Assembly: GCA_040954595.2 (NCBI GenBank) | Contig: CM082580.2 | Span: 3,214,783-3,278,782, forward strand | Length of the DNA stretch: 64,000 bases | Direction of reading: 5' to 3' | From: Balanoglossus misakiensis | Taxonomy: Eukaryota; Animalia; Hemichordata | Shown here: piece after piece, positions 32,240 to 60,300 of the stretch | How positions within the stretch are numbered: the first letter of the stretch is position 1 | How the letters are laid out: the number at the start of each line of letters is the position of its first letter | Program-made: the position numbers and the translations under genes | The notes under the pieces: generated by a model | What the model was told of the DNA's origin: nothing | Seen by the model: only the letters and a program-made list of their open reading frames with translations | Database searches by the model: none

Positions 32240-32284
32240 TGTCGCCGGGAGTTTTTCCACTTTTACCCGGGCAGTACTTTTCTA
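32240..32284 (+). repeat. First 45 bp of the Gypsy 5' LTR, separated from the rest by the inserted DNA transposon
   Basis: tgtcgccgggagtttttccacttttacccgggcagtacttttcta is identical to 46491-46535. Confidence 0.95.
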
Positions 32285-32805
32285 GACAGGGGCGACAAAC
32301 GTTATGCGCATGTGCCACAGGAAGTAAACAGTTACATAGACTTATGCTGGAGACGTAACTTTTTTTCAAAAGGGATGAAAAATACCCAAAAGGGATGGAC
32401 AAAATGACACATAAAGCTCGTGTGAACCATGATCTAAAACATACCTCATGTCCACATCAATCTAACCCTGGCCTAATAAGATATCGCGACTTGAATTTGG
32501 TGGCGCGTAATTTGAGCATGCACAACGTCATGTCAGTGTTGTGTCAGTTTGAAATAAACATTTCAAAGTTATGCAGATACTGTGATTTCGACTTAGGCTA
32601 ATAAAACTTCACCTACGTCATGTTGATAGCTGTTTAACAATCGTGTGATTTTCACGAAAAGTATGATGTGTACTACCGCCTTAGTTGAGAAATAAACAAT
32701 AATCCGTTCTCATGAGCAACAGCAGACGATGTAAACATTTGGCGCGAACGTTTCCAAAAGTGGACCAGTCGTTACCATGGTAGTCTAGTTGTAAACACTG
32801 CCAAG

Positions 32806-35800
32806 ATGTGCGACAACGACTGTGTCTTAGCTGGTAAAACCAGGTCACAAAACAAATGTAGTGGGAAGTTATATGCTATAACGGATGCGATAAGAAGATG
32901 TTGCAAAGGGTTAGTGAATGACGGCGATGTTTTTAGTTTTATTTGTAAATATCATTTTCGTCGTGTGACAAGAGACGACAGTCGCCGTTGCTCTTGTCCG
33001 GCACCATGGTCACACAGTCAGACGATCAGCGACCGCCCGATCCCGTCAAGGCTGTACAAGGTTTTTGATGAAGTAGGCGAGTCCGACAGAAGTTACATGC
33101 CTGGAACACGATGGTGTCATAGGTGCAAGTTACGAGCCGACTCAGAGTTTTTCCCCGGCTTCCAAGCTTACGTTCCTCCCAGCCAAAGTAAATCCGTTGA
33201 CCTCAGAGACAGATCCCCCTTGGTAAGTTTCAAGCATCTATATCTTCTGATTACATGTTTTCAATGTAGAAACGCACACTGGGATCGTGGGAGGTTCACT
33301 TCGGGTTCAATGACACAATATGTACGTACGAAAGTCGTATTATGAAACAAAACAAACGTAAGAAAGGGAAGTCCCTGACACTTCAATAATTGAGGGCGCA
33401 AACGCTGGGGGGGGGGTTCTTGAGAGAATGAAAATGATAATGTCTTGTTGTTTTTTCATTATATTTATCAGGTTCTACACAAGGAATATCTGTGTTTTGT
33501 GAAAAAGTAATTGATACATTGATGTGATTGTCCTATTTCTTCAACTCAACACTTGTACATGTATTTTCTATCATACAGTACCCAATCCAATTTGACCAGA
33601 AAGAGACACAGTATTGTGGTACAGTTCTTTCAAGTAGTGAGGGTCACGTATTGTTGTCAAGTAGTCAATGGAGAAGCATTATTTCGAAACTAGAAGGTTA
33701 GTATTTGATTTTAACACAGTTACAGAGAGTTAATAAGATTTTGTGCTATTTATCTAACGAATAAGGCCAGTTTTGATATCATTACCACCAGATGCAAGAC
33801 ATACAAAGAGGTAAATCAAATCTGCACCCTTTCAATATAACATTGTTTGGTCTGAGACTGTGCAGTTACTAAAATATGACTTCATTAGGTGTAAGACTTT
33901 TCACATGCAATGTAAGGCAACTAAATAAAATGTGAACAGTGTCTAGCAGCAAGTAGGTTATTTGGTAATTCTGATAATAATTGTGGGTTATAATTTTCCT
34001 CAAAATTCCCAGCATCAACTTTTCCCACTCAACTGAGGACCCTACAGGAAATGGTGTACAGGGCACAACAGAATGGTGTTTCTTTTGATCTGAAGAAGTT
34101 GGAGTTCTTTGTAAAGAAACATGTACCGGATCTGTATAGTTTGATCTATACAGCACTAGTTGACCCAGCAACATCGACACAAAGAAAAAAACAACAAGAG
34201 ATGAGAGTACTGGCCACCTTAAATTTACTCACATTTTACAGGTGAATAATTTTGTTTCTTTTGGTAGCTTATTTACATTGTTGTGTTCACTGAAACACAC
34301 CCAATGGTCAGTTGTTTAAAACTACTTGAGTGTACCAAAATCTCAACCTATTTCTTTTCAATCATAAAATTAGATCACAGAAGACAAGCCAGTTCCAAGA
34401 GGCCATGGGATTTTATTTAACCATGCAAGGGTTGTCACAGGAAGCCCTGGATATGTGTCGGGTGTTGGGTCTCTCACAGCACTCAAGAACCTTGGGGAGG
34501 AAGAAACAAGTAATTTCCAAAGAACACAGGAGAAATGTGCAGACATTCATTAAGAAGAAGTTACAAGTAGGTTTTTTATATTAAAAGGAAATTTTGCACT
34601 TTTTCAGAGATTTAATTTGCACTTTTTCAGTGATTTAATTTAGTGAAATATACATGTATTTATAAATGAATTTCATTTTTGAGTTTACCCAAAAGCCAGA
34701 AAGAAAAGTTCAACACCCATTTAAGTGAAAAACAATGTTTTTTATTCCTTGAAGTTTAATGTAAAAATCCATCTCTTTATAATAATTTATGTAGTAAGGT
34801 TAGTTGTAAATAGAAAACATACCTGTGTGTGAGTCTATCTAAAACACATTGGTTATGGAGACCAGGCTACATGATTGCTATCCTAGCTTTTACAAGATGA
34901 TGCTCTTTTTGTACAATGTCATTCATGTTCCAATTTATTGTATAGTCAATCTATGACAGTCATAGGGGTGTTATGCATGATGTCCTATAATTACAAAGTC
35001 GTACACCTTTTACCTTTGACTCTTTTTATTTTGATTCCAAGGAAAGAGGAAAGACATTCATCCTGGCATTAATCGACGACTTCCATAACATACATGGGTT
35101 TAAATCGATGGCTTCTGGCCATAAGGACCTCAAAACCAGTAAGGCAGTACACATGGCGACTACAATGTTGGATATTCTTCCAATTGAGCCACTCAATCTG
35201 CCAGATGATGGATCTATGCACAGGTAAGGGTAAAACATATTAATGATTACCTTATGACAGTCTTTGCAAAAATAATATACTGTATACATGTTTTACAGTT
35301 TTCTGAACAATACAAAAAGTATAATAAAACAACTGTACTATTTGCGTCATACGTATACTATATATACATGTGGACATGACAAAAATGTTCTTTTTACTTT
35401 GCATCCAGGACCATATTCATATACGACAAAAATGGCAAACAAATTCCAGTACGAGGAGGGATAGCACCCCATGTAATGAGGAGAGAATTTAAATACTTTA
35501 TGAAAGATTATTCCATGAGCTTTTTGGAATCTTTACCATCTACCTTTCATAAGCTTAACACTCAACATGCTATCTCATCATTGAAGAATATGAGGTAAGG
35601 TCCCACCGTTGTCCGATGCCACCAAACATTTGTGTGTTCGTTCGGTCAGTCAATCAATCAGTCAGTTACAGGAAATACAACAGTACTGTAATAAAATTAA
35701 AGTCTTTTATGATGTTACATTGTTTATCATGAATGTTTCCCCACTAAATAAAGAATGTAAAGTTATACTTACCAAATGTACTACATATTTTATCACCTTT

Positions 35801-38470
35801 GTATTTCTGATGTAAATCACACCCAGTGAATCTGAAAAAGAAATTAGAGAATGTAACTGTCTGTTGCAGTGAATGAATATAATTGTTGATGTAATTTCTT
35901 TGCTCTAGCATTTACAACCTTTGCTCAATTCTCTTTTGTTTTTAATTTTAAGGCCATATACTGACATTGATGCAGAAGAATTGCACACCCTTGACACAAC
36001 CATTCTGATTGATGAGATTGAACAGCAACTAAAGAATAAAGATGACCTGTACAACCTGTGGACCATGCTTCTCAATTTGCCACAACTGAAGACATACACT
36101 TCACAGCATGCTATTTTGGCACCAGGTGATTGGCCAGTGTGGTACTTTGGGAAAAAAATCATCGCCTCTTACAATGAAAATGACACAGTTGTCCCAAGAG
36201 AAGTTCTTTCTTTCATACCTACTGTTGGTCAATTTCATATTGCTTTAAATGCATCCCGTGATATTGTTATCTGTTCAAAGTTTTTTTTCCAGTTACTGTG
36301 CAATGGAGTCTTTGATAAGCGTTTTATATTAGCTGCCTTGCCTAAACCCTACAAGGTCTCACTCTGTATTTTTCTAGCATTCAGTGGTTGGGTTCGCATC
36401 CGTCGTTATGTAATTGGAAAACTGACTGTCTGTAAATCTGTTGAAGTGCAATTCTTGCTTTTTCTTCTTGATGAATTAATCCCGCTTGTTTATTTACATT
36501 ACCCTGTTTTTGTTCAAGGTAATGACAGAAAGATGTTACTGAATGTCATGAAACGCCTGGAAATCTACTTCATCATAGCCAACAGACATCACTACAACAA
36601 ATCTTTGCTGAGTTTGCTTTCTGATGACCTATACCACACATCACACTTACCCGGTTACACAAATCTGACACAACACCACCAACATATCATCACTGAGAAG
36701 AAAGTGGAGCTCTTTCACTCATCACTTCGACACCACATACAACCACATGATGATGGCAACACAATACAAAGACAAGCACACATGCTACACTATACAAAGC
36801 ACAACATTCTAATTCAAGAATTCTTACAACTGCACAACCATGGCAAAGACGACTATGACCTGACACTGTTAGCTGGCAGAAGTGCTGAGACACTACTTGA
36901 CATTGTCAATCAGGTTATGAAATCTGCAGCTGAACACCGACCCACACCAATTAACAATGGAACATATCACCTCCCAACATTCAATGCAGACATCACATCA
37001 AAATGCCTACCGCTGGGTTTCAGGTGGTCTCACCAACACCGACCAAATGAAGACCTCCTGTGTGACAGTCCAACCTGTTCAACCTCTTCTTCTTCCAATC
37101 TTTGCAAACGTCTCACCTGTGGCCACACATATCACATTACCTGCCTCAGTCAAACTGGCTGTTCTATTTGTTCCCCTTTCCTAACAGCTGAAGTTGTTCG
37201 CCTGTCTAACAGCTGGAATGAGGGCATTGTGAAGGAAATGCCACAACGGCCTCCACAAGAGTCCACAGAGACAGAGCACAGTGATGGCTTTACGTCCACT
37301 TCACACACACATGGGAAAGAGTACTACCTAACAACACAATTTGAAGATGACATCAAATCTCGTGCAGCTTTAATACCACAAGTTAGAACTGGTCAATACC
37401 AAAACCACCAACACAGGGAGATGAGTACACACACTACATGCACCTCCAATGCTGGTTTCTCCAATGTTTCTTCTTCAACACAACTTCCTCAGCTATCTGT
37501 TCTTTCCCCCACTGAATCACAACAAGCACAGACACCCAACTCAAACACCAATAATGTTCAACAAACACAAACACCATCACTGCCAGCACAAACATCTTCT
37601 CCCTCATCAAATGATGATACACATTTACAACAATCACAGACATCCAACCTATCGACCAGCGGCGGAGAAACACAACAATCACAGACATCAGCACCTCCAG
37701 AACCCACAGCCACATGCAGTCACTCCACTTATACTCACAAACAGACACAAATACAAGAAAACACAAACAAACAACTTCATAAATATTCTCACTTACGACA
37801 TTTGGTTTGGTTGACACCAAAACCACAAATGCACGGCACCATTAATTACTGGCTATGTCACTACATCATTTCACAAGGAACAATACACTCCAATAATGTA
37901 CGTTCAGGCAGCAATGCTTGCACCTTGATTTGTCTACTGTTTGCGCAATGGTTTTACCAAAGATGTCCTACAAATATGCTAACTACATCGACAGTGTTAC
38001 CTCAAGAATGGTTGGCTGGATTCATTATGTCGTGCGTTCGTGGAAATGATGTACATGATGTATACCGATTAAATGCAATTCACAACTCATTGAACCTTTC
38101 ACCATCAGAGGCAATTAAAGTGCTAGGAAACAAATTAAATTTACAATTTCAGTCAAATGAAATTGGACCGGTTTATACTTGTCACAGGTCAGAACCGAGG
38201 CGAGGGTTATTAGAGTTTTATTTTGGTTATTGTTTAACCAAAAGACAAAGTGCATTAATATATGTTAGAAATGAAATGTCGGTGTTATTTATAGTGAACC
38301 AGGGCAACATTCTGCTTGTAGATTCGCATAGTCACAGAAATAGTCAGAGTGGTGCTTTGTTTGCCCAAGTTAAATATTCCAATGCAGTTGATTTGTTGAG
38401 ATGGTACGACAACTTTATTGGCATTGATGCAGAGTATCATATCGGTACCGTAACACTAATAGGATTTTAA
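32806..38470 (+). CDS. Spliced ~1280-aa putative transposase fused to a RING-H2 finger and a herpes-tegument-like (C76/VTD) cysteine protease
   Basis: Seven GT-AG exons that splice in frame with no stop: 32806-33222, 33579-33696, 34013-34241, 34374-34566, 35042-35223, 35409-35594, 35953-38470 (3843 nt). Motifs: N-terminal CxxH...CxxP..H...PG...CxxC; IDDFHNIH; PGDWPVW; GQFHIALN; EKKVELFHS; RING CDSPTC...CGHTYHITC...CSIC; C-terminal SQG...GSNACTLIC...LLVDSHSH. Confidence 0.85.
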
Positions 38471-39104
38471 TTTTGCAACTGATAACAGATATAGAAATAT
38501 GTAAATACCTGTAACTTATAACTTATGATCATATTTATTACCAAATCTTGACAAAGTCAATAATAACAGTTTCTATCTTGTAAGTACTGAATTAGATACT
38601 TCAGAGCAAATGTATAGTTGAGAAGATATCTGCAATTAAATACGAGGGGGAAAATCAATTATATCTAAGCTTACCTTCATCAATTCAAGTTGAGAGTTGA
38701 CCATCCATAGTTGTCATAGTGACCTTGTCTCTGTTGTTTCTGTAAATAAATAATGGGCAGTGTACATTAAGGAATACATAGCAAATGTTTTGAATTGCTT
38801 TGTTTATGTAAATATGTAATTTTGGATATTGATGTTTTCAGAGAAGTGGTCGATTTAATCTACATGTATGTACATAATATAGATGGGAAATGATCATATA
38901 TTTTTATAATAAATATTTTCGTTATTTATACATTGGATTTTCTCTTTGATAACATCTCTCATACCAATACAATCACAATTAAACATAGCACAACAACCAC
39001 CAGACTCACCTCGTTTATGTTTTCCGTAGTACCGGTAGACGGAATCGATATTCTAATTTATTGGAACATGGTGGAAGCATCTATAGGTGGTGCCATATTG
39101 GTAT

Positions 39105-39166
39105 AGGTCGCACCGTAGTTGACAGAGCTCAGAAAATTCTAAGTGCTGTCAACTACGGTGCGACCT
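39105..39166. repeat. Perfect 21-bp inverted repeat (hairpin) in the right subterminal region of the DNA transposon
   Basis: aggtcgcaccgtagttgacag (39105-39125), a 20-nt spacer, then ctgtcaactacggtgcgacct (39146-39166). Confidence 0.9.
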
Positions 39167-39574
39167 GTGATATTGGCGCAACTAACAGAACGCCAAGACT
39201 CTATCGGCCATGAATTTACCAAGTTTCATCTCAAGGGCTACGGCCGATCCGCGAAATGCGATCCGCAGCTATGTTTTGAAACCAAAGATAAACATGCAAA
39301 ACACTGTGGGTAAACACTTTCCCGCGGCTACACCGTTTCTACTACAGAGTTTACCGAGTGACAGTTTGTCCAATCATATTATCAAAAGACGTAAGAAATA
39401 ACAATAATAATATATCTGCATTGGCGTTACCAGATTGCAGCCGAAACAACTTATAGAAGGTAAAACTTGGCCAGACTCCTGGCTAGACGCGTATCAGCTG
39501 GTTGAAAACACTCGCCCACATTGTACTTCCGGTAGCGCATGCGCAGAACGTTTGTCGCCCCTGTGACTTTTCTA

Positions 39575-40331
39575 TTGTTGAGATCATTGCCATGCATAGC
39601 GCCCTCACGAGCCTGCAGGGGGAGAACGTCCTACATCATGGCGTCCCTCACCATGCAGGCAAGTGTATTTGTAGCGTCCAGATTTCTATCGAATATTTTC
39701 TATGTAAAGGTTGGCATCCATGCCCCATGTTATACCACGGACAAAAGTAACATTTTGAGAACACTCGTTGAAAGTTTCAGTGTTTGATGTTGGATATTTT
39801 TCATGGTTCTTCCAGTTTTATTCCACTCTGTACTTACCATTTGTAGGCTTGTGTGCAGTGCCTATTGTCGTGCATGTTATTCCCATGTGTCAGTTCCTGA
39901 CCATTTCGTACTTACCTGCCAATATATCGTTGTTCAGTGGTTTCCATACAATTTAAACAAACAGATATGACTACCTTTGGTATATCAAGCTATTTTATTT
40001 AGTGTTTTCAGAGTTTTGTAAGCTTCACACAGGCCATGTAGTGCGTCACATGACTAGACACCCTAGCTTACTGTGGATTGTTGAAACCCCATTTATTGAA
40101 CCCATAACTCAGTGTACGTTCTTTTCCCTCCTACATCATGGCGTCCCTCACCATGCAGGCGATGCGGAAGAAAATAAAACAAGCAATGTGAAGCCATAAC
40201 TGGTGTCGGCTGAGTTTATTATGTGTGAGCGGTACTGTGACACTGATCAACAGAAAATAACGCAACGCAATGACAATAAGACAGAACTATTGAAGTACAG
40301 AACTATTGAAGTACAGAAAATCAGTGCCACA
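39575..40331 (+). repeat. Remainder of the Gypsy 5' LTR
   Basis: Matches 46536-47292 with no difference found by eye. Ends ...agtgccaCA. AATAAA at ~40173. Confidence 0.95.
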
Positions 40332-40333
40332 TC

Positions 40334-40352
40334 TGGTGCCGAGACCAGGATT
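40334..40352 (+). promoter_or_regulatory. Primer-binding site (tRNA-His-like)
   Basis: TGGTGCCGAGACCAGGATT lies 2 nt after the LTR. It is complementary to a tRNA 3' end, closest from memory to invertebrate tRNA-His (TGGTGCCGTGACCAGGA); tRNA-Phe is not excluded. Confidence 0.75.
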
Positions 40353-40648
40353 GATCCACAGTTACGACCGTATCCAGTTTATGTGTGTATGCTGATTCAG
40401 CCAGCGGAAGTCCAGTGTATGCAGAGTTGCTGTATTGTGTGCGAGTTGTTGACTGCTCCACAAGGAACTTGCCTGTCGACATTTTTAAAAAAAAAAAAAA
40501 AAAAAAAAAGAAACACACACACATTTTGCAGACAAACATTTGAACAGTGAACTGTGAAAGAAAAGAACAGTGTTTACTGAACTCTGCTTAGAGCAGTACA
40601 TTGAGTGCCAGTGGTTTGTAGCAGTATTCCGTACAAATATACCAACCC

Positions 40649-41983
40649 ATGAGTAGCAGTTTATTACCAAATATGCAGAACACAACTGTTGACGATTTGA
40701 TGACCTTTGACCTTGTTGAAGGGGATGACATCCAAAATCCACGGGAAGCAGTTCCACCCACTCCGCAACAACCCCCCATCACCATGACAACCCCACACAG
40801 ACCGGTGAACCAGGGTAACTATGATCCCAATACCCCGCACAGCCAACCAGTTATGCAGCAACCAAGCATGTTCCTTGCCTCCAGTAATTTGTTTCAACCA
40901 AACTTTCAGTCCACCCCATATTTCTGTCCACAACCAGCAGTACCACCTGTACAGCCATCATTCCAACCGGCTTTGAACCCACCACCCGTTTCTCAGTATA
41001 GAATGAACTCATCACATCAAGTGCGTGGTGTACCGATTTTCAGCGGGAATCCAGATGGGAAAGTGCTTGTGGAGGACTGGATCAGAGACATCCAATACTT
41101 ATTCGAAGCCGGTACAATGCCAGAATACCTGCAGTTTGCCACCATCATACGACACTTAAGTGGCGAAGCAAGGAAATTGGTCCTCAACCTCCCACCATCA
41201 CAACAAACCCTGAGTCGTGCTTTCGATGAATTGCGCGCCGAATATGGAGAGGGATGTCTGTCTATGGACCCGATGGGCAGCTTCTATGAAAGACGACAAC
41301 GTTCAGATGAGTCAGCAAGCTCCTATGCAATAGCCCTAGAAGATATGTTGCGACAGGTAGAGGAGAGAATGAACCGTGGTCGACCCTACATGGACAGAGA
41401 CTATAAACTTACCCAGCAGTTTATGAAGGGTTTGCACGATCAAAGTGTTTTCAATCGACTGGCTCCTATGAAACCGAGACAAATGACCTTTGCTGAACTT
41501 AGGGCTGAGCTTCGTCATCTAGCCAGAGAAGGTAGGCAAACAGCAAACAAATCGAAGAAAGGCCAGACTCAACCGCATTTTGCGAGAGATAACCATGATC
41601 AGACGGGCAATCAGTCGGTGTCATTCATACCAGATCAGACACCAGGAGTCGACCAGTCCATGGCACAAGTCACCCAGTTACTACAACAAATTGCACTGAA
41701 CCAGGAACAGCAGGCTGCACGACTTGCCAAACTGGAAGCGAAGGCCACCAACGCACCGAAACAACCATCTGATCAGAGCAGCAGTACACCGATGTGTACG
41801 GCTGGTAAACCAGATCCAGCAGCAGCTAACAGAAAGCCAGCTCCACGGTTTGATGAGAATACTGTGTGTCATCGTTGTGGTGGTAAAGGACATATAGCTA
41901 AGGGATGTTGTTCCAAACCCATCCAGAAGTCCAGGGGATCACCCAGTGGTGCTGGACATCATACAGCTACACCTTTAAACTAG
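40649..41983 (+). CDS. gag: Gypsy Gag (PNMA-like capsid, CCHC zinc knuckle)
   Basis: 444-aa ORF with FSGNPDGKVLVEDWIRDI, HLSGEARKLV, FYERRQRSDESASSYAIALE and the knuckle CHRCGGKGHIAKGC. Confidence 0.93.
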   Translation: MSSSLLPNMQNTTVDDLMTFDLVEGDDIQNPREAVPPTPQQPPITMTTPHRPVNQGNYDPNTPHSQPVMQQPSMFLASSNLFQPNFQSTPYFCPQPAVPPVQPSFQPALNPPPVSQYRMNSSHQVRGVPIFSGNPDGKVLVEDWIRDIQYLFEAGTMPEYLQFATIIRHLSGEARKLVLNLPPSQQTLSRAFDELRAEYGEGCLSMDPMGSFYERRQRSDESASSYAIALEDMLRQVEERMNRGRPYMDRDYKLTQQFMKGLHDQSVFNRLAPMKPRQMTFAELRAELRHLAREGRQTANKSKKGQTQPHFARDNHDQTGNQSVSFIPDQTPGVDQSMAQVTQLLQQIALNQEQQAARLAKLEAKATNAPKQPSDQSSSTPMCTAGKPDPAAANRKPAPRFDENTVCHRCGGKGHIAKGCCSKPIQKSRGSPSGAGHHTATPLN

Positions 41984-44900
41984 TTCAACCTGTGGAAGAG
42001 GGACATTCCGCAGGTGTTGACACAGTTAGTCCCCCTCGTCAACAGAAAGCAGATTCATTACAAGTTCGATCTGGAGTGGAGGTGGTAGACCAATTGGTTG
42101 GACCATTGAACGAGACATTGGTGGAAGTGAATGGCATTAAGTGTAGTACCCTGGTAGACACAGGTTCCCAAGTAACCACAGTGACCGAAGACTTCCTGCA
42201 GTCTCATCCTCAGCTATCCAGTAGAACATTGGAATCTGCAGACATTACTATTGAAGGGGCGGGAGGCCAGAGTGTTCCTCATTACGGTGTGACACGGTTA
42301 GACTTGACATTTCTTGGGCGGACATATAAGCAAGTACCGGTATTTGTTGTCCCACATACAGCGTATCGCAAGAAAGTGCCATTGTTGATTGGAACGAATG
42401 TGATACGTACTAGCCGCAACGATTTGAGAGCCATACATGGACACTGCTACCATAGCCAAGTTAAACGGACATCAGAAGTATGGTATAGTGCCTATAGGCA
42501 AGTGGGGAAAACAGAGCTTGGTGGGAAGTCTGGATTGATAGGTCAAGCAAAATACAGGGGCCGTCGGCCCATGACTATACCACCAGGAGAAGAGGCCCAC
42601 ATTCCCTGTCGTGTGCCAAGGGGTCCCGCCAGGATGATGTACACTGCACTCATAGAAGGCCCGCAAACTCGATGTGTTCCAGATGGGTTGGCTATTGGCA
42701 GAGTACTAGCCGATATTGACGGAGGACAGACAAGCGTAAGAGTTTGTAATTACTCGTCTAAGCCCCTGGTCATCTGGCCAAAGACCTGCGTTGCAGAGTT
42801 GCATGCTGTAGAGAGCGAGGATGACCTTCCAGCCCTCAGGGAACCCAGGAAATCAGACAAACATAAGCAAAACAGTACTAGACAGGGCAGGTCCAGGAAC
42901 CGCAGAACAATGCAGTCCGGGCGTGATCATGCACCTCCACGACTGAGTCCACCCCAATGTCAGAGTACTACGCAGTCTGCATGGGATGGTATCCCTCCTG
43001 TCGATTCGAGTGGTGTAGCAGCAGATAACCTTGAACAGCTTCAAGCTTTAAAGGATCTCCTGCGGAAGAATGCCGATGTGTTCTCAAAACATTCTATGGA
43101 CTACGGTAGAACGACTACCATCCAGCACGAAATACCGCTTGTGGACAACCAGCCATTTCGGTTACCACACCGTAGAATACCCCCAACGCAGTACCAAGAG
43201 ATCAAAGAGCATATTGCAGACATGGAGTCAGCGGGAGTGATTAGACCCAGCAAGAGCCCTTATGCGTCTCCCATCGTTATTGTGCGCAAAAAGGATGGCT
43301 CTCCCAGGATCTGTATCGATTACCGTGAACTCAATAAACGTTCCATCAAAGATGCATTTCCCATGCCCCGTATTGATGATGCGCTGGAGGCCCTTGGGCA
43401 GGCAAAGTACTTCTCTACGCTGGACCTTACCTCTGGATATTGGCAGATGGAGATTGCTGAAAAGGATAAGTACAAGACAGCATTCACAACCCCCATGGGA
43501 CTCTTTGAGGCGAACCGAATGCCTTTCGGTCTTACAAATGCACCAGCGTCGTTCTCCAGACTTATGACAGCTTGCTTGGGCGACCAGAACTTTTCCACAG
43601 TCATCATCTACCTGGATGATATCATCATATTTTCCCGTACCTTTGATGAACACCTTACCAGACTCCAAATGGTGTTTGACCGACTACGTCAACACGGGTT
43701 GAAACTGAAACCCCAGAAGTGCAGCCTTCTGCAAAGGGAAGTAAGTTACCTGGGGCATCGAGTGTCGGCAGACGGTATCAGCACGGACCCAGAGAAATTG
43801 AAAGCTGTGAAAGAATGGCCCAGACCTAGAAACCGTAAGGACCTACTAAAGTACCTTGGCTTCACTGGGTACTACCGTCGGTTTATCAAGGGTTACAGCA
43901 CCATAGCGGCGCCTCTGTACCGTTTGACTTCGGGAGACCCCAGAAAGAAAGTGAAAGGAGGAAAGGCACCCAAGCCTGCCCCACCATTTGTCTGGTCCAG
44001 CGAGTGTGAGGACGCTTTTTGTTGTTTGAAGGATAAACTTTTGTCTGCTCCCATCCTTGGATACCCCGACTTCTCGAAGCCATTTGTCCTTCATACAGAT
44101 GCATCCGGAGAAGGTCTAGGTGCTGTACTAGTCCAGAATCAGGAGGGCAGAGACAGAGTTATATCATATTGCAGCAGAGGATTGTCACCTTCAGAAACCA
44201 GATACCCTGCACATAAGTTAGAGTTTTTGTGCCTCAAATGGGCTATCACCGACAAACTGAGGGACTACCTTTACGGCAATTACTTTACTGTACTAACAGA
44301 CAACAACCCCCTAATCTACGTCATGTCCACCGCAAAATTGGATGCTACAGGCCAGCGGTGGGTTTCTCAGCTGTCCATGTTTAACTTTGATATCAAGTAC
44401 AGGCCGGGCAAGAACAACGCCAATGCGGATGGTCTCTCTAGGATGCCACGTGAAGAGGTTGCTCAACACTTCAAAGCCGTATGTAGTATGGTGAACAGCA
44501 AGGCCCTTGTGGATGGTGAGTCGAGACCAGAAGCGGCGGCCTCAGATGCCTTGCCCGGTATGACACCGTCAATGTTGAGACTGTGTCAAGAGGAAGACTC
44601 GTCAATTCAGAGAGCAGTTTTCCTGCGTAGCTCATCGAGAAAACCCAGCCAGAGGCAACTAAGGAGTGAATCCAAAGAGACAAGGCTGTTGCTCTACCAG
44701 TGGGACCGACTACAGGTCAAGGATGGCATACTGTACAGACAAGTTCGTCCACCTCAAGGAGCTGAAGTTTTCCAGATGGTTCTTCCATGTAAGTACCGAA
44801 GGGATGTCTTCCAGAAGCTACATAGTGAGATGGGACACCTTGGCCTGGACAAAACATTAGACCTCATACGTGCACGATTTTACTGGCCACAGATGTTTGT

Positions 44901-46368
44901 CCAGGTGAAGACGTGGTGTGAGCAGTGCACGCGCTGTTGCCTGAGGAAAACGGCGTCCAACATCCGGGCACCCCTTGTCAACATTAGAACTTCCGAGCCA
45001 ATGGAACTAGTATGCATTGACTTCTTGACACTTGAGCCATCCAAAGGAGGCATAGAGAACATACTTGTGGTAACGGATCATTTCTCTCGTTACGCCCAGG
45101 CCTTCCCCACTCCAAACCAGAAGGCTTCAACTGTAGCTAGAATTCTTTGGAAGAATCTGATATGTCATTACGGCTTTCCACGTCGCCTTCATGCAGACCA
45201 GGGACGTAATTTCGAAAGCTCATTGATACGCGAGTTGTGTAGCATTACCAATACCGTGAAGAGTCATACCACACCATATCACCCCCAGGGAAATGGGATG
45301 ACAGAGAGATTTAACCAAACGCTTCTCAATATGCTTGGAACCCTGGATCCGTCCCAGAAAACCGACTGGAAAGAGCACGTTGAAACCTTGACCCATGCTT
45401 ACAACTGTGCCAGGCATGAGTCCACGGGATACTCACCTTTCTTTCTCATGTTTGGGAGATGTCCACGCCTGCCAGTAGACCTTGTATTCAACACCTCATC
45501 GGACAAGGAAGAGCCAGTCGAGTATTCAGACTATGTTGACGCACTCAGAGAGCGGTTGAAGATCGCCTACAGAGAAGCAAGTGCCAATGCAGATGAAGCA
45601 AGACAAAGGCAGAAGAAGCAGTATGATAGTAAGGCAAAGGCAGAGAGCCTGTCCCCCGGCGATAGAGTCCTGGTACAGCTGAAAGAGACAGGCAAACACA
45701 AAATAGGGGACCGGTGGGAAACAACACCCTATATCGTAGTGAAGAAACAACCAGACATTCCCGTCTATGTGGTTAAGTCTGAGATAGAGGACAGAGAGAA
45801 AACAGTGCATCGCAACATGCTCAAGTTATGCTCATTCCTACCAGTGGAGTCTGGAGGTCAGCCAACCAGGCCAGTGGTGGGTGGTGCCAGCGGTCCAGTC
45901 ACTTGTGCCACTGCTGGGGGGACCGACTGTGATTCAGAGGCCGAAGGAGACATGGTAGAATTGGTAGCCGAGCCAGAACTCACAGGGCTGACCCCTACGG
46001 AAGAACCCGCAGTTGCAGTCCAGCCTAAAGGGATCAGCAGCCCAGAACCATTGACAGCCCAGATGCCGACCACCGGTTATACACCAGATAACCATATATC
46101 AGTGACACCATCCACTTGTACTCCTGGTGCACCGGATGCTTCCACACAAGGGCAACACCAGTCATCCAAGGATAATCCCGCCACTATACATACACCGCCA
46201 ACCGATCACAGCAACACCCTGGAACAGCCAGAGACAACACCTCGCCGATATCCACAAAGACAGCGGAGACCACCCGACAGATTAGGATCTTATATTTTAT
46301 CCATAGTTGCCAGAGCTACAGGACATACTCACCCAGAACAATGTGTGGGACCTATGATCGAGGTTTAA
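41905..46368 (+). CDS. pol: Gypsy Pol polyprotein (aspartic protease, reverse transcriptase, RNase H, integrase), expressed by -1 frameshift near 41980
   Basis: LVDTGSQVT (PR); SPYASPIVIVRKKDG, LDLTSGYWQ, YLDDII (RT); LHTDASGEGLGAVL, TDNNPL (RH); HSEMGH...CEQC, CIDF, HADQGRNFES, GMTERFNQTL (IN). No stops. Confidence 0.96.
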   Translation: MLFQTHPEVQGITQWCWTSYSYTFKLVQPVEEGHSAGVDTVSPPRQQKADSLQVRSGVEVVDQLVGPLNETLVEVNGIKCSTLVDTGSQVTTVTEDFLQSHPQLSSRTLESADITIEGAGGQSVPHYGVTRLDLTFLGRTYKQVPVFVVPHTAYRKKVPLLIGTNVIRTSRNDLRAIHGHCYHSQVKRTSEVWYSAYRQVGKTELGGKSGLIGQAKYRGRRPMTIPPGEEAHIPCRVPRGPARMMYTALIEGPQTRCVPDGLAIGRVLADIDGGQTSVRVCNYSSKPLVIWPKTCVAELHAVESEDDLPALREPRKSDKHKQNSTRQGRSRNRRTMQSGRDHAPPRLSPPQCQSTTQSAWDGIPPVDSSGVAADNLEQLQALKDLLRKNADVFSKHSMDYGRTTTIQHEIPLVDNQPFRLPHRRIPPTQYQEIKEHIADMESAGVIRPSKSPYASPIVIVRKKDGSPRICIDYRELNKRSIKDAFPMPRIDDALEALGQAKYFSTLDLTSGYWQMEIAEKDKYKTAFTTPMGLFEANRMPFGLTNAPASFSRLMTACLGDQNFSTVIIYLDDIIIFSRTFDEHLTRLQMVFDRLRQHGLKLKPQKCSLLQREVSYLGHRVSADGISTDPEKLKAVKEWPRPRNRKDLLKYLGFTGYYRRFIKGYSTIAAPLYRLTSGDPRKKVKGGKAPKPAPPFVWSSECEDAFCCLKDKLLSAPILGYPDFSKPFVLHTDASGEGLGAVLVQNQEGRDRVISYCSRGLSPSETRYPAHKLEFLCLKWAITDKLRDYLYGNYFTVLTDNNPLIYVMSTAKLDATGQRWVSQLSMFNFDIKYRPGKNNANADGLSRMPREEVAQHFKAVCSMVNSKALVDGESRPEAAASDALPGMTPSMLRLCQEEDSSIQRAVFLRSSSRKPSQRQLRSESKETRLLLYQWDRLQVKDGILYRQVRPPQGAEVFQMVLPCKYRRDVFQKLHSEMGHLGLDKTLDLIRARFYWPQMFVQVKTWCEQCTRCCLRKTASNIRAPLVNIRTSEPMELVCIDFLTLEPSKGGIENILVVTDHFSRYAQAFPTPNQKASTVARILWKNLICHYGFPRRLHADQGRNFESSLIRELCSITNTVKSHTTPYHPQGNGMTERFNQTLLNMLGTLDPSQKTDWKEHVETLTHAYNCARHESTGYSPFFLMFGRCPRLPVDLVFNTSSDKEEPVEYSDYVDALRERLKIAYREASANADEARQRQKKQYDSKAKAESLSPGDRVLVQLKETGKHKIGDRWETTPYIVVKKQPDIPVYVVKSEIEDREKTVHRNMLKLCSFLPVESGGQPTRPVVGGASGPVTCATAGGTDCDSEAEGDMVELVAEPELTGLTPTEEPAVAVQPKGISSPEPLTAQMPTTGYTPDNHISVTPSTCTPGAPDASTQGQHQSSKDNPATIHTPPTDHSNTLEQPETTPRRYPQRQRRPPDRLGSYILSIVARATGHTHPEQCVGPMIEV
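41974..42037 (+). promoter_or_regulatory. Programmed -1 ribosomal frameshift signal
   Basis: Slippery heptamer T TTA AAC (41974-41980) directly before the gag TAG; pol is in the -1 frame. After a 7-nt spacer comes the stem acctgtggaa/ttccgcaggt (41988-42015). Confidence 0.85.
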
Positions 46369-46480
46369 ATCAGTTTCATGTAGATCACAACAAAAACAAA
46401 TTCTTTGAAATGTTCGCGTTATTGTTAAATTTTTGATGAAAAAAAAAAAAAAAAAACGTTGAGGACACCGTTTCCCAAAC

Positions 46481-46490
46481 AGGGGGAGAG
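46481..46490 (+). promoter_or_regulatory. Polypurine tract
   Basis: AGGGGGAGAG lies immediately before the TG of the 3' LTR. Confidence 0.9.
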
Positions 46491-47292
46491 TGTCGCCGGG
46501 AGTTTTTCCACTTTTACCCGGGCAGTACTTTTCTATTGTTGAGATCATTGCCATGCATAGCGCCCTCACGAGCCTGCAGGGGGAGAACGTCCTACATCAT
46601 GGCGTCCCTCACCATGCAGGCAAGTGTATTTGTAGCGTCCAGATTTCTATCGAATATTTTCTATGTAAAGGTTGGCATCCATGCCCCATGTTATACCACG
46701 GACAAAAGTAACATTTTGAGAACACTCGTTGAAAGTTTCAGTGTTTGATGTTGGATATTTTTCATGGTTCTTCCAGTTTTATTCCACTCTGTACTTACCA
46801 TTTGTAGGCTTGTGTGCAGTGCCTATTGTCGTGCATGTTATTCCCATGTGTCAGTTCCTGACCATTTCGTACTTACCTGCCAATATATCGTTGTTCAGTG
46901 GTTTCCATACAATTTAAACAAACAGATATGACTACCTTTGGTATATCAAGCTATTTTATTTAGTGTTTTCAGAGTTTTGTAAGCTTCACACAGGCCATGT
47001 AGTGCGTCACATGACTAGACACCCTAGCTTACTGTGGATTGTTGAAACCCCATTTATTGAACCCATAACTCAGTGTACGTTCTTTTCCCTCCTACATCAT
47101 GGCGTCCCTCACCATGCAGGCGATGCGGAAGAAAATAAAACAAGCAATGTGAAGCCATAACTGGTGTCGGCTGAGTTTATTATGTGTGAGCGGTACTGTG
47201 ACACTGATCAACAGAAAATAACGCAACGCAATGACAATAAGACAGAACTATTGAAGTACAGAACTATTGAAGTACAGAAAATCAGTGCCACA
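46491..47292 (+). repeat. Gypsy 3' LTR (802 bp)
   Basis: TG...CA, followed by the ATTA TSD. Confidence 0.96.
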
Positions 47293-47471
47293 ATTAATTG
47301 CATTTATCTTTGTTGCATACAAAAACATAGACACATGACAACAGGCTATATTGTACTCCATTTCTAAATTGCTCAAGATCCCTTTTTACCAGTAGCAGTA
47401 AGTGACATACCAGTACAACAGGTAACTTCCATGGCAAGATACAACTAAAAGTGAGAACTTCACAAATAATA

Positions 47472-47679
47472 CTGTAAAACACTTTATTTTCGCGAGTTGA
47501 AATTTTCCCGATATCGAGAGAGGCCACTGTTTCGCGAGTATTAATTTTCGCGTTCTCTTATTTCATTCACTGTATCGTTATCTTCAAAAAAAAATTATGT
47601 GATTTTTTATTTTCATGCTATTTTGGCTCTCGCGTCTTTGGCGAAAATTTATTGCTCACGAAAATAAAGTGTTTTACAG
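47472..47679. mobile_element. MITE family A copy
   Basis: ta-ctgtaaaacactttattttcgcgag...aaaataaagtgttttacag-ta. Confidence 0.88.
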
Positions 47680-48726
47680 TATAGTACAAAGATTAAATTT
47701 TCAAATATTGTGGAGATAGATTATAATTTTGTGGAGTGTCTATGGGCATGAAAATATTAAATATGTGCTTGGAGAATGATGAAAAAACATATGATAAACT
47801 TCAAATGATCAACTGGAAAGATCACTGCTGTCTCCAACTGGTTATAGTTAAAAGTTCATTGTTGGGTAGAGCAGTCAAAATGTATTAAGGGGTCTGAATT
47901 CAAGTCTCCTCTGGGCGGCTCAGTTGTTTTTACTCACAAAATTTCCACTTGGCTTGTTGAATTTGGTACTCCTCAAATTTACAGCAAAACAGAGTTCTTT
48001 CTACATGGTGGATTTGGTAAATCACTGGTTTTTGTGACAGTCTATTCATATTATCTGGATATATGCAAAGTGTGGATTTAGAGAACATGCAAACAGCTTA
48101 AATTGGACAACCATGCTCCCCTTTAAAATGAAAACTGACCAGTAATTATAATTATAATGTTTATATAGAGTTGGACATAAAGTTGTGCATAGCTTAAAAT
48201 GTGAAATGCACTTTTTGTTCACTCTGCCAAGATTCGAAATGCGCTAGTCAAATGGCTGTCTTCATGGAGTTGAAAACGTGATCTGATATTGAATATTTTT
48301 TGCGTGCTCCATTTAATTTCAACACACTACAGACACTGTATCACTGGCAAGTTTGACGAAAATAAATGACTACTACAATTCTCTCCATGCTGTCTAGAAA
48401 ATGCACGCACATGTACCATACTGTCTCCCTGAACAGTCCATGAAATAATACCCAGCGGCATCTTTATATTCACAAGACAGCCTCACAAATTTGAAACTGC
48501 ACACAACACCACATCTGTCACAATCAATTTTTTGGTTTTCATGGTGATGTGTTCAAATCCTCTGAGTCACCCTTTCCTTTCAATGAGAATATAGTGTGTA
48601 GGACTCTATACATGTTTCAGTAATGGGACTAGATATACATGTTATGGTAATATTGGCGTTATATCTAGGAGTGGCAAACATAATCCAGTTGACCTATTGG
48701 AGGTCATCAATGAAACACTCAAGGTA

Positions 48727-56400: not shown

Positions 56401-56537
56401 CTGTAGAGAAAAAAGATTATAATAATGTTTATAAAAATATTACAGTTGAATGAGAATGCATAAGCCTGTGAAGATAATTGTCAATCATGCATACTACACA
56501 AGTAGTGTGTGTGGCCTCATTTACTCCACAGCACATA

Positions 56538-56745
56538 CTGTAAAACATGTTATTTTCGCGAGTTGAAATTTTCGCGATATCGAGAGAGGCCACTGTTTCG
56601 CGAGTATTAATTTTCGTGTTCTCGTACTGCATTGTGCACATTGTTCTTTCACAACTATATCTACGCGAGTCTTTATTTTTGTGTTTTTTTGGCTCTCGCA
56701 TATTTCGCGTAAATTTATTGCTTGCGAAAATAACATGTTTTACAG
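56538..56745. mobile_element. MITE family A copy (subfamily A2)
   Basis: TA-flanked TIRs; internal segment like the 27807 copy. Confidence 0.88.
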
Positions 56746-57125
56746 TACATTATACATGTACAAATCAGCATTGTTTAACAAGAGTAAATCATTGATTGCA
56801 GTTTAAGTCCTTTATAAGAACAAATTAATGGAGGAGATTTTTCAATGTATCATTGAATGCATTAATTTCAATGGGTATGTCATTTATGAGTGTACTTTGA
56901 AATTGAGCATTTAATTATAAATGAAATTTTCAGGACTCATCTTGCTTCATTTTTCATTCTGGATGAGTGGGCAAAAAAAAAATCAAAAGTAGGCGACAGA
57001 ATTAATGATGGAACAGGGAAGGGAGAAGAGACAGAGTACATGTACATGGCTCTTATGTACATTTGTAAACCCCAATGTATTTTTTTTGTCTGAAATATAC
57101 ACTGGTGTAATGTATGTGTAGAATA

Positions 57126-57333
57126 CTGTAAAACATGTTATTTTCGCGAGCAATAAATTTTCTCAAAATACGTGAGAACCAAAATAGCGTGAAAATAAAA
57201 AGTCGCGTAAATTTTTTTTGAAGATAACGATGCAGTGAATGAAATAAGAGAATGTGAAAATTAATACTCGCGAAACAGTGGCCTCTCTCGATATTGCAAA
57301 AATTTCAACTCGCGAAAATTAAATGTTTTACAG
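57126..57333. mobile_element. MITE family A copy (reverse orientation)
   Basis: ta-ctgtaaaacatgttattttcgcgag...aaatgttttacag-ta. Confidence 0.88.
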
Positions 57334-60300
57334 TATTTGTAGAATATATTTAGGTCTCACTACAGTAGACGAATAATGAGTGTGTTGTCAACATGCAAAC
57401 TAGATCGATGGATCTGTACAGCTGATACCACGATATTGCCAACCATTCAAGAATTTGTATTGTATCAGTACATTTCCAGAATACTGTGTGGGAGGTTTGA
57501 CATGCATTGTAACATGCGGTTCCAAAACAGTTGAGAACTATTTGATGTAGTGGAATCTGATTAGGTTGAAAAGGCCATTCATACAGTCTGGGGGGACATG
57601 TCTATCTTGTGTGATGTGAATTCTCAACGGAGAATAATTATTCTAATATGTGGAGAAATTCTTTTGAGCTGTTGGATTGTGCATGGTTATGCTCTGGTAT
57701 GTTGTCAGTGGTGCCACCAAATTCTCTGGTCGATGCAGTAAAATGTCTACATTGTTGGTTCCTTTTCTCTATTATTTACAAAGAAATCAAATATATTTTT
57801 TTATAAAAGGCAACTCCGTTGTTACATGCACGGATGGGTCAGTTGTGAAATAACACAACCAGCGTACGTGTACACACGTTGTATGTGGTTGGAAGTAAAG
57901 CTTTTAGGCAACATGTGACAGAATGTGTGGGAAGATTTGAATCCATCACATGCACTCACGGCCTACACACTGTTAGCAGCTTGGATGACTAACTGAACAG
58001 ATGAGACAAACATGTACGTATGTTTCCATTGAAAACAAAGAGGTGTGGAGAGATTAAAATGCTCTGACATCATATGGCCATATTTTTCTATTTCCTGTTC
58101 GATTTTTGGGATATTTCTGTGGTTTTTATCAGCATTAAGCACCAAAACAGTAACTTAAACTAGCTGAATATATAAACTATGCAAAAAAGAACATGAGAAA
58201 TATAAATATGAAAAATCTGAATTTTTATCTGTTCTGATCGAAACATTGCAATTTGTCTGAGTTCAAGAAACATGGCCAGGTGACTGTGATCACTCGATAG
58301 GAACTGTTCTAACCAGATCATATGAGATCACTTTACTATTCCATTAGGAATTAAATTCGTTTCCTACAGCACTTTATTTGAGGGTTTGTTGACCCGAGCG
58401 TTATCTGTGCAACACAATTCTAACTGAAGCACAATTTGTTTCAGTTGTTGAACAGATGTAATAATTGACTGTTTATTGGAAATCATTACAGCCAATATTT
58501 GCCACACAAAAAAGAAAAAATCTACAGTCAGCAATTGAAAGAATATATTCTATAAAGGAACGGGGCAATGTAGGATTTGTGTCATCAAATGTGGGCTGAA
58601 AATTTTGCTCTACAATCCTACAGTACATGACGTGTAGGTGTAATGTTATTTTGTGCTGTAAAAATGATAAACTTCATGTCCACTACACCAATTTAATCAG
58701 CCTCCATACAAACAGTACGCAGCTATCGTGGTATGCCAAGAGATGCAAATGCAAGTAATATGGCTTAATGGTGAGGATTTTAGAGGATAGGGAATATATT
58801 TGTAGTATTTTACTGTGGGAAAATAAATATGTGAAATTTGACAGCTCTAGAGGCTTTAAACTGTGGTTGGGAATAAAATATGAAATAATGCAAGAGTGCT
58901 TCATAGAAATAATCAATATACATTCTGGGTGAATGAAAGGATTGTTATTTTAGAATCTGCTTAATACACAAGAGCTCGAGATATAAATAGCCTACAAATA
59001 TTTATATAACACTGAAAGTCATGGAAATGGTTTCAATGCTGTATGTAGGCTTTTCAGTACAAATCAATAGTTCTGTTAATAATAATACAACTAAGATCTG
59101 CATTTAGAATCCGACTAACATTTATGGCACTATGAGTGATTGACGATAAAACCAGATAGTTTATTATAACCAGTATGAAACTGGTTTCTGTAGTGTCAAG
59201 TTTCCAAGAGTGTTTTATCAAAGATTATATTTATATCATGCTACCGTCCGCCATTCTGATTGGACGGGAGCGATGGTAAAATACTGTTTTACCACTGGCT
59301 GTTTCACTAAGAAAATGACACTAATATGCCACAAAATTAATTGTTGATATAATATAGTAGCAAATAACCCCACCTCAGTTGGGTATGCACTGGATTTTGG
59401 TACACATTAGTGTTATCAATTCATTCCAAATACATTTAAGCAATATCCAGGAAACTACATCAGCTGGAGAAGGTGTTGGTTTATGTAGGGGATTTTGTTA
59501 CTGTCATAAGCAGATGTCCAGGCCAAAGATGTGATTGTTACAACTAATAACTTAAGCAGGCTTCCAGAGTTATCCAGCAAAGAGATGTTACTAGTGACAG
59601 TTGTAAACTCCTTACATTGATACATGTACAATATCTCTACGGATGACACACTTCTATCAGATCCGGACTACCTTACTTGAACCCTGGATTTGGAAAACTT
59701 CAAAGCTCTGTCTATAGTTTCATTTCCAAGATTTCAAAAGACATCTGGAACATTGCGGAAATGAAGCACTGACAAGTGAGATTTATTGGAGTGAAACATA
59801 AGAGATATTGGCATATTTCCTGGGTCTATTCTTTGGTTTTCAAAAGTATTCATTAGGATGGCTGGAGCACGGAACTCGGTTATGCAGCATTAAATGTCTG
59901 CCATTTATAATGTTTCTTGTTTAAGGATTGATGGAAAGAGAAGTGTGCACTTCATGCTGATGTTCTGATGTGCATTTGTGTGCTGTTCTTATTCCGTTGT
60001 CAATTTTAATGTACACTGTTGATCTTACAGAGGATTGGTCTCATTGGCCGAGTTAGTTACTGACTTTTTAAAGGGCAATTATCGTCATTTTGGGGAGGCT
60101 GTTGTGTGGGACGCACTGGTTACAAAATCACATAATTCCGTGCGAATATTAAACTCTCTAATATGGCCGCCAGACCAATAACTAATAAAAGCTTTACTTG
60201 GGGATTCTTACACTGTTTGGAGTGAAGAATAATTCGTAAACTATGAACACCATTCAAATTCCAAATCTACAGCAGAAATTTCAGTGCTGAAAACTCTTCC

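Follow-up and report, generated by a model that had tools for sequence, protein, structure and literature searches.

Balanoglossus misakiensis carries, in a 64,000-nucleotide stretch of its genome (the whole stretch that was analyzed, hereafter the window), a transposase gene with an additional domain at its C-terminus. An earlier note on this DNA took the domain for a herpesvirus-type deubiquitinase (DUB) or deneddylase captured by a cut-and-paste transposon. This raises the questions of whether the domain is such an enzyme, where it came from, and what it would do for the element.

A transposase gene ending in a predicted VTD

The gene (32806-38470, + strand) is predicted to have seven exons (32806-33222, 33579-33696, 34013-34241, 34374-34566, 35042-35223, 35409-35594, and 35953-38470) and to encode 1280 aa without a stop or frameshift. 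This is a homology-guided model: the putative splice sites, all GT-AG, come from a search guided by the relative P0001. Identity to P0001 is 64% over the full length, 79% in the core, 78% around a RING finger, 44% in a linker, and 63% in the C-terminal VTD (viral tegument-like, peptidase C76-type deubiquitinase) domain.

The core (35075-36718, +) is a predicted DUF6589-like DDE transposase. Its candidate catalytic residues are the two Asp of an IDD motif (35075 and 35078; Asp in 46/53 and 47/52 aligned sequences), the Asp of GDWP (36128; 70/70), and one of two Glu (36695 and 36707; 52/60 and 50/57). No transposase match for the core was found in a PDB sequence search, and the Pfam DUF6589 model did not match the window protein directly; it matched one of 22 relatives (E 0.008). 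Language-model features from the ESM Atlas gave DUF6589 a score of 0.95 for the P0001 core, with 28 of the 30 named matches, and of 0.80 for the partial core of the window protein. The claim that the gene encodes a transposase was borne out by the DUF6589 resemblance and the conserved D/D/E columns of this putative core, together with the terminal inverted repeats (TIRs) and target-site duplication (TSD) described below.

Downstream of the core lies a RING-H2-like zinc finger (37061-37171, +; C-x4-C ... CGHxxHxxC ... CxxC) of the C3H2C3 type. Its eight ligand columns are conserved and its first pair is spaced C-x4-C. A profile of this region found RING-H2 E3 ligases (RNF165/Arkadia) as its best PDB matches (E 1.4e-4); a Pfam RING match upstream of the VTD was sub-threshold. 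A low-complexity Ser/Thr/Gln linker (37260-37820, +) separates the finger from the VTD, which is predicted at 37838-38467 (+) from motifs, profile, and fold.

Conservation of the VTD motifs

All VTD motifs sit in one open frame (35909-38470, +), that of the last exon. The Gln of ISQGT (codon 37874), the Cys of GSNACT (37919), and the Asp (38321) and His (38327) of DSH were found as the earlier note had placed them, 15 aa from Gln to Cys and 134 aa from Cys to Asp. The Gln-Cys distance is 12 in most relatives, and the window copy carries a 3-residue insertion that it has in common with P0001. An alignment of 128 near-full VTDs, from which sequences with too little profile coverage were excluded, has the Cys in 128/128 rows, the Gln in 122, the His in 125, and the Asp in 117; the complete Cys-Asp-His triad is intact in 116. 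Among the 19 transposase-linked rows, six depart from C-D-H in a triad column, three having Glu and three being broken copies. This conservation is more than chance would give, because the profile recovers 380 proteins and the residues are kept across 128 domains.

A Gln serves as the oxyanion residue in herpesviral tegument ubiquitin-specific proteases, and we take the Gln at 37874 to have the same role. The words 'oxyanion' and 'Gln' are absent from the main text of PMC9741609. The alignment also has a conserved G-N-x-x-(Y/H)-D patch; just ahead of the GN, the window copy has Arg, whereas 32 of the 128 relatives have Glu. In DrT1-VTD2, the acidic residues D376/E377 grip the RxR tail of ubiquitin (PMC9741609); neither this pair nor E363/N364 could be placed on the window sequence.

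A subclade of VTDs (loci L025-L028, L044, L046, and L063, and protein P0138) has Glu-Ser-His in place of Asp-x-His, a motif that has been termed invariable for VTDs (Erven 2022, PMC9741609). The L025 family, with this Glu-Ser-His VTD, has TIRs and several different flanks.

Fold and family assignment

The check proposed in the earlier note, a search with Pfam Herpes_teg_N, gave no hit: the window VTD alone matched no Pfam model, this one included. The relative P0130 did match Herpes_teg_N, but its E of 5e-4 does not reach the curated cut-off. PDB searches for the VTD with phmmer, using the single sequence, and with a 4-sequence set gave no match either. Three relatives came from a search with the region: a 1310-aa protein of Ptychodera flava (64% identity), one from JGI, and a CxC3+KDZ protein of a coral. 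A profile built from four homologs then matched 380 proteins (representatives) at E<=0.001 among 1.84 billion, of which 150 were listed.

A structure was predicted with AlphaFold from a 99-row alignment of the better-covered profile matches (pLDDT 91.5, pTM 0.90); the single VTD sequence gave an unusable model (pLDDT 35.7). When the 99-row model was compared with the PDB using Foldseek, the first six rows were all VTD/M48 structures (E 1.6e-6 to 1.9e-4), led by 8ADC, 8ADB, 2J7Q (M48), and 8ADD, with AvrPphB next. In VIA superpositions, 8ADD reached Z 17.1 (191 aligned residues, rmsd 3.2) and M48 (2J7Q), the structure suggested earlier for this purpose, Z 15.8, followed by 15.3, 13.4, and AvrPphB at 12.2. 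All of the first 21 rows of a BFVD search with the model were herpesvirus tegument proteins. Foldseek, VIA, and BFVD thus agree with the suggestion of a papain-like fold, the predicted alpha-beta-alpha fold being closest to M48, DrT1-VTD2, and Wc-VTD1. Independently of the model, the family profile (A2) matched Wc-VTD1 (8ADB; E 1.5e-5) in an alignment that pairs the Cys as well as the D-x-H motif. In the model, the Cys opens a helix (28-42) and the Asp closes a strand (157-162), as would be consistent with Cys, His, and Asp meeting in space. VTDs are defined by an M48-type fold and an Asp-x-His motif (Erven 2022, PMC9741609), and the C-terminal domain is predicted to have the VTD fold and the catalytic residues of herpesvirus-type deubiquitinases.

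Rows 22-29 of the BFVD search were uncharacterized giant-virus proteins (Catovirus, Tupanvirus, and Indivirus) with E<0.001 to the VTD model.

Subfamily and origin of the VTD

Among the matches listed, the sequences closest to the window VTD are invertebrate VTDs, some carried by transposons and others forming single-domain insect proteins of ~245 aa; the insect label on these rows rests on the names of two, Anabrus and Aethina. Herpes and Helitron VTDs were not among these listed sequence matches and were seen by structure only, identity to the solved VTDs, herpes and Helitron ones included, being 11-15%. The description 'herpesvirus-type' therefore holds for the fold and for the order of Cys and Asp-x-His but not for the nearest sequences, and it is a family name, not a source. 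A viral source of the window VTD is not supported by these comparisons, and direct capture from a herpesvirus was rejected, there being no sequence-level closeness.

The window VTD appears to fit the insect/nematode/cnidarian subfamily of PMC9741609, beside which its Drosophila member ms(3)76Ca can be set by description. This protein cleaves ubiquitin with a preference for K48 chains and has no activity on NEDD8 (PMC9741609). Because the nearest characterized subfamily member is specific for ubiquitin, the window VTD is more likely to be a DUB than a deneddylase, the two activities that the earlier note had left side by side.

Trees of the VTDs were built, one of them with 39 chosen rows in which the KDZ (Kyakuja-Dileera-Zisupton) label comes from Pfam for two rows and from similarity for the rest. 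KDZ-type VTDs formed one separate clade (support 100/100), and insect-type VTDs and VTDs fused to Serinc each formed one clade. The transposase/RING-linked VTDs did not resolve as a single clade, the deep order was unsupported (42/45), and the window copy sits on a long branch. A derivation of the insect VTDs from the window lineage is not supported at this deep support.

Two further architectures were seen. Five proteins of ~700 aa (P0029, P0040, P0045, P0051, and P0052), which form the well-supported Serinc clade, carry an intact VTD behind a Serinc membrane domain, possibly a domesticated fusion. Two cnidarian CxC3+KDZ transposases, P0003 (Desmophyllum) and P0035 (Nematostella), carry a C-terminal VTD of the same subfamily in the separate clade.

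A recently moved element inside a Gypsy retrotransposon

The boundaries of the element were obtained by comparing a split long terminal repeat (LTR) with its intact sister. The whole DNA transposon spans 7281 bp (32285-39565, +), as defined by the split 5' LTR versus the intact 3' LTR of a Gypsy retrotransposon and by contigs that exit at 39565. Its 42-bp TIRs (left, 32285-32326, +; right, 39524-39565, -) are identical at 36/41 positions and have in addition a mismatched terminal base. They are flanked by a 9-bp TSD, ACTTTTCTA, whose left copy (32276-32284) follows from the LTR comparison and the empty form, and whose right copy (39566-39574) follows from the LTR comparison. In the empty form, 32275 is connected to 39566 and 9 letters are in common, and the sister 3' LTR provides this empty target. 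With TIRs, a 9-bp TSD, and an empty site all found, the assignment to a cut-and-paste transposon stands.

The host Gypsy element (32240-47292, +) has LTRs that are identical over the 801 bases compared, and Pfam matches to reverse transcriptase, RNase H, and integrase. Its 5' LTR is split (32240-32284 and 39566-40331) and is followed by gag (40622-41983), pol (41902-46368), and the 3' LTR (46491-47292); ATTA is found on both flanks. Since the LTRs are identical, the Gypsy element is young, and the DNA transposon inserted in its LTR is younger still; the DNA transposon has moved recently. At least two other flanks adjoin its right end (39565) in contigs of one sample. In this sample, possibly the one from which the window came, element contigs had a depth of ~90-120 versus ~21-25 for contigs of the nearby flanks, which is consistent with several near-identical copies, a contig depth not being a copy number.

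The Gypsy element itself is intact, its gag and pol frames overlap, and each LTR contains a 32-bp direct repeat. The motif GCGCATGYGC, adjoining a GGAAGT core, is found in both TIRs of the DNA transposon (32306, 32319, 39525, and 39535); on the + strand it occurs twice in the whole window, both times in the TIRs. GCGCAT is also found within the TIRs of the related loci L019, L022, and L025. We take GCGCATGYGC and GGAAGT to resemble the NRF1 and ETS promoter motifs, respectively.

Distribution of the fusion and placement of the element

The full order of core, RING, and VTD was also found in P0001, P0077, and P0130. Among metagenome loci carrying the transposase (the best 80 of 91), 20 are followed on the same strand by a VTD. 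After clustering at 88% identity, a VTD is linked in 12/43 clusters, or in 12/17 when the count is confined to clusters whose downstream sequence reaches 1 kb or more, so that it is missing from five of these 17 informative clusters. A metagenome scan with a single protein yielded none among 171 candidates. VTD-less relatives end 62-143 residues past the RING, and at locus L019 TIRs surround a gene of this kind. Judging from these sequences, the transposase-VTD fusion is a trait of the lineage; since relatives without a VTD exist, the VTD is an optional accessory of the element. A TIR search at 30 loci gave convincing repeats in few (L025-L028 and L019) and weak ones in L022 and L029; in the L025-L028 family, the TIRs are accompanied by duplications of 9-10 bp whose boundary is ambiguous.

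We assume that DUF6589 is the Academ transposase, a link absent from the DUF6589-naming literature that we found. On this assumption, the window element would share with Academ the DUF6589-like core; the length of its TSD, 9 bp in the window and 9-10 bp in L025 and L027, agrees with that of AcademH. AcademH elements have a 9-10 bp TSD and encode a helicase, whereas in AcademX the TSD is 3-4 bp long and a nuclease is encoded (PMC10045372). Unlike AcademH, the window element has no helicase ORF within 32285-39565, nor space for one; unlike AcademX, it has a 9-bp TSD and no second nuclease gene. With a 9-bp TSD but no second gene, it is neither AcademH nor AcademX by definition, and it is best called DUF6589-like and probably Academ-related, Academ having been compared by description. 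These elements point to an unclassified TIR lineage whose TSDs are 9-10 bp long although it lacks the helicase supposed to go along with TSDs of this length.

Comparison with known systems

Ubiquitin-family proteases on transposases, VTDs on Helitrons, and cnidarian VTD-transposon fusions are already known. The window VTD shares its predicted fold and the order of Cys and Asp-x-His with the VTD deubiquitinases M48/UL36/BPLF1 of herpesviruses, DrT1-VTD2 (8ADD) of a zebrafish Helitron, Wc-VTD1 (8ADB/8ADC) of Waddlia, and ms(3)76Ca of Drosophila; its Cys-Asp spacing is 134, versus 129 in DrT1-VTD2 and 121 in Wc-VTD1 as computed from the residue numbers in PMC9741609. Helitron VTDs are likewise carried by a transposon, but the carrier in the window is a TIR/DDE cut-and-paste element rather than a rolling-circle one, and its VTD stands behind a RING finger and groups by sequence with invertebrate VTDs. 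In Ginger1, Mutator, and Helitron proteins, an OTU or Ulp1 tail likewise places a ubiquitin or SUMO protease C-terminal to a DNA transposase (Bao et al. 2010, PMC2836005), and the Ginger1 and Mutator cases are a precedent; the window protein differs in protease class (VTD) and in its transposase. The KDZ proteins with CxC3 (P0003 and P0035) have a VTD of the same subfamily at the transposase C-terminus, but their transposase is of another family (Pfam KDZ) and their VTDs are a separate clade. For cnidarians, fusions of VTDs with 'several transposon-associated domains' have been mentioned, without names in the text available to us (Erven 2022, PMC9741609). The window architecture was not described in the literature searched on VTDs, peptidase C76 transposases, and DUF6589, a scope exclusive of Repbase Reports and subscription journals.

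Transposons of several classes thus bear ubiquitin or SUMO proteases. These proteases have been proposed to play a role in transposition (PMC2836005, PMC9741609), but no test of this idea came up in the literature consulted, including the available text of these two papers. The window copy, an intact and short element with a single gene and a recent insertion, makes a transposition assay with a Cys-to-Ala mutant feasible. A transposon source of invertebrate-type VTDs has been postulated only, as far as the text available goes (Erven 2022, PMC9741609), and two cut-and-paste carriers, DUF6589/RING and KDZ, can now be named for them. A broader and rather improbable proposal, which we offer tentatively, would be that a lineage related to Academ, free of a helicase and active until recently, encodes a transposase that edits ubiquitin through an E3 RING and a VTD deubiquitinase on one chain, and that such cut-and-paste elements, with KDZ ones, are the missing source of the domesticated male-germline VTD genes of insects and nematodes.

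Proposed role of the VTD

We consider it likely that the gene encodes a transposase-RING-linker-VTD polyprotein in which the VTD would be an active deubiquitinase that delays the proteasomal loss of the transposase or of nearby proteins. The transposase would bind its own TIRs, excise the element, and insert it with a 9-bp stagger; the tethered VTD would strip ubiquitin, probably as K48 chains, from the transposase or its neighbors, and their destruction by the proteasome would be delayed. All characterized VTDs cleave ubiquitin, and the Helitron ones have been proposed to protect from the proteasome (PMC9741609).

The RING-H2 finger suggests another scheme, possible but not one that we favor, in which one chain would combine E3 ligase activity in the finger with DUB activity in the VTD, so that the protein would either remodel ubiquitin where the element excises or inserts or remove a host silencing factor. 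The near-invariant RING ligands among relatives and the RING-H2 E3s returned by the RING profile speak for it, as do the fungal VTDs fused to RBR ligases (Erven 2022, PMC9741609). However, VTD-less relatives retain the RING, which therefore serves a separate function. In active RING E3s there is usually a Trp in the central helix and an Arg after the last Cys, but in the window protein the helix is short by eye and lacks the Trp, and no Arg follows the last Cys; the RING may be a structural or dimerization finger. It is unlikely that the VTD fold serves a different target, either NEDD8 on cullins or the polyprotein itself, self-cleavage of which would release the transposase. Two zebrafish Helitron VTDs and BPLF1 do cleave NEDD8 as well, the fold is related to that of the non-DUB YopT-like proteases, and the ubiquitin-binding residues of the window VTD are putative; yet ms(3)76Ca, as noted, acts on ubiquitin and not on NEDD8, and the activity common to all characterized VTDs is the cleavage of ubiquitin (PMC9741609).

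It is very improbable that the VTD is only a passenger that was captured a single time and has since become neutral or catalytically dead in the window element. Some relatives do without it, insects have inactive VTDs, and the window copy combines its long branch with the 3-residue insertion near the active site. The triad is nevertheless intact in both the window copy and P0001, the VTD is better conserved between these two than the adjacent linker (63% versus 44% identity), and it has been retained in 12 divergent clusters. A deubiquitinase acting on the transposase or its neighbors is thus the reading that we prefer.

Other features of the window

A long open frame at 6813-10397 (-) encodes leucine-rich repeats and a TIR domain (here the protein domain) and is a Toll-like receptor gene. 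A dispersed repeat family of ~230 bp occurs in both orientations (4153-4382, 47457-47686, 56523-56752, 57111-57339, and others). The window contains other short repeat families as well, and these short dispersed families are probably MITEs.
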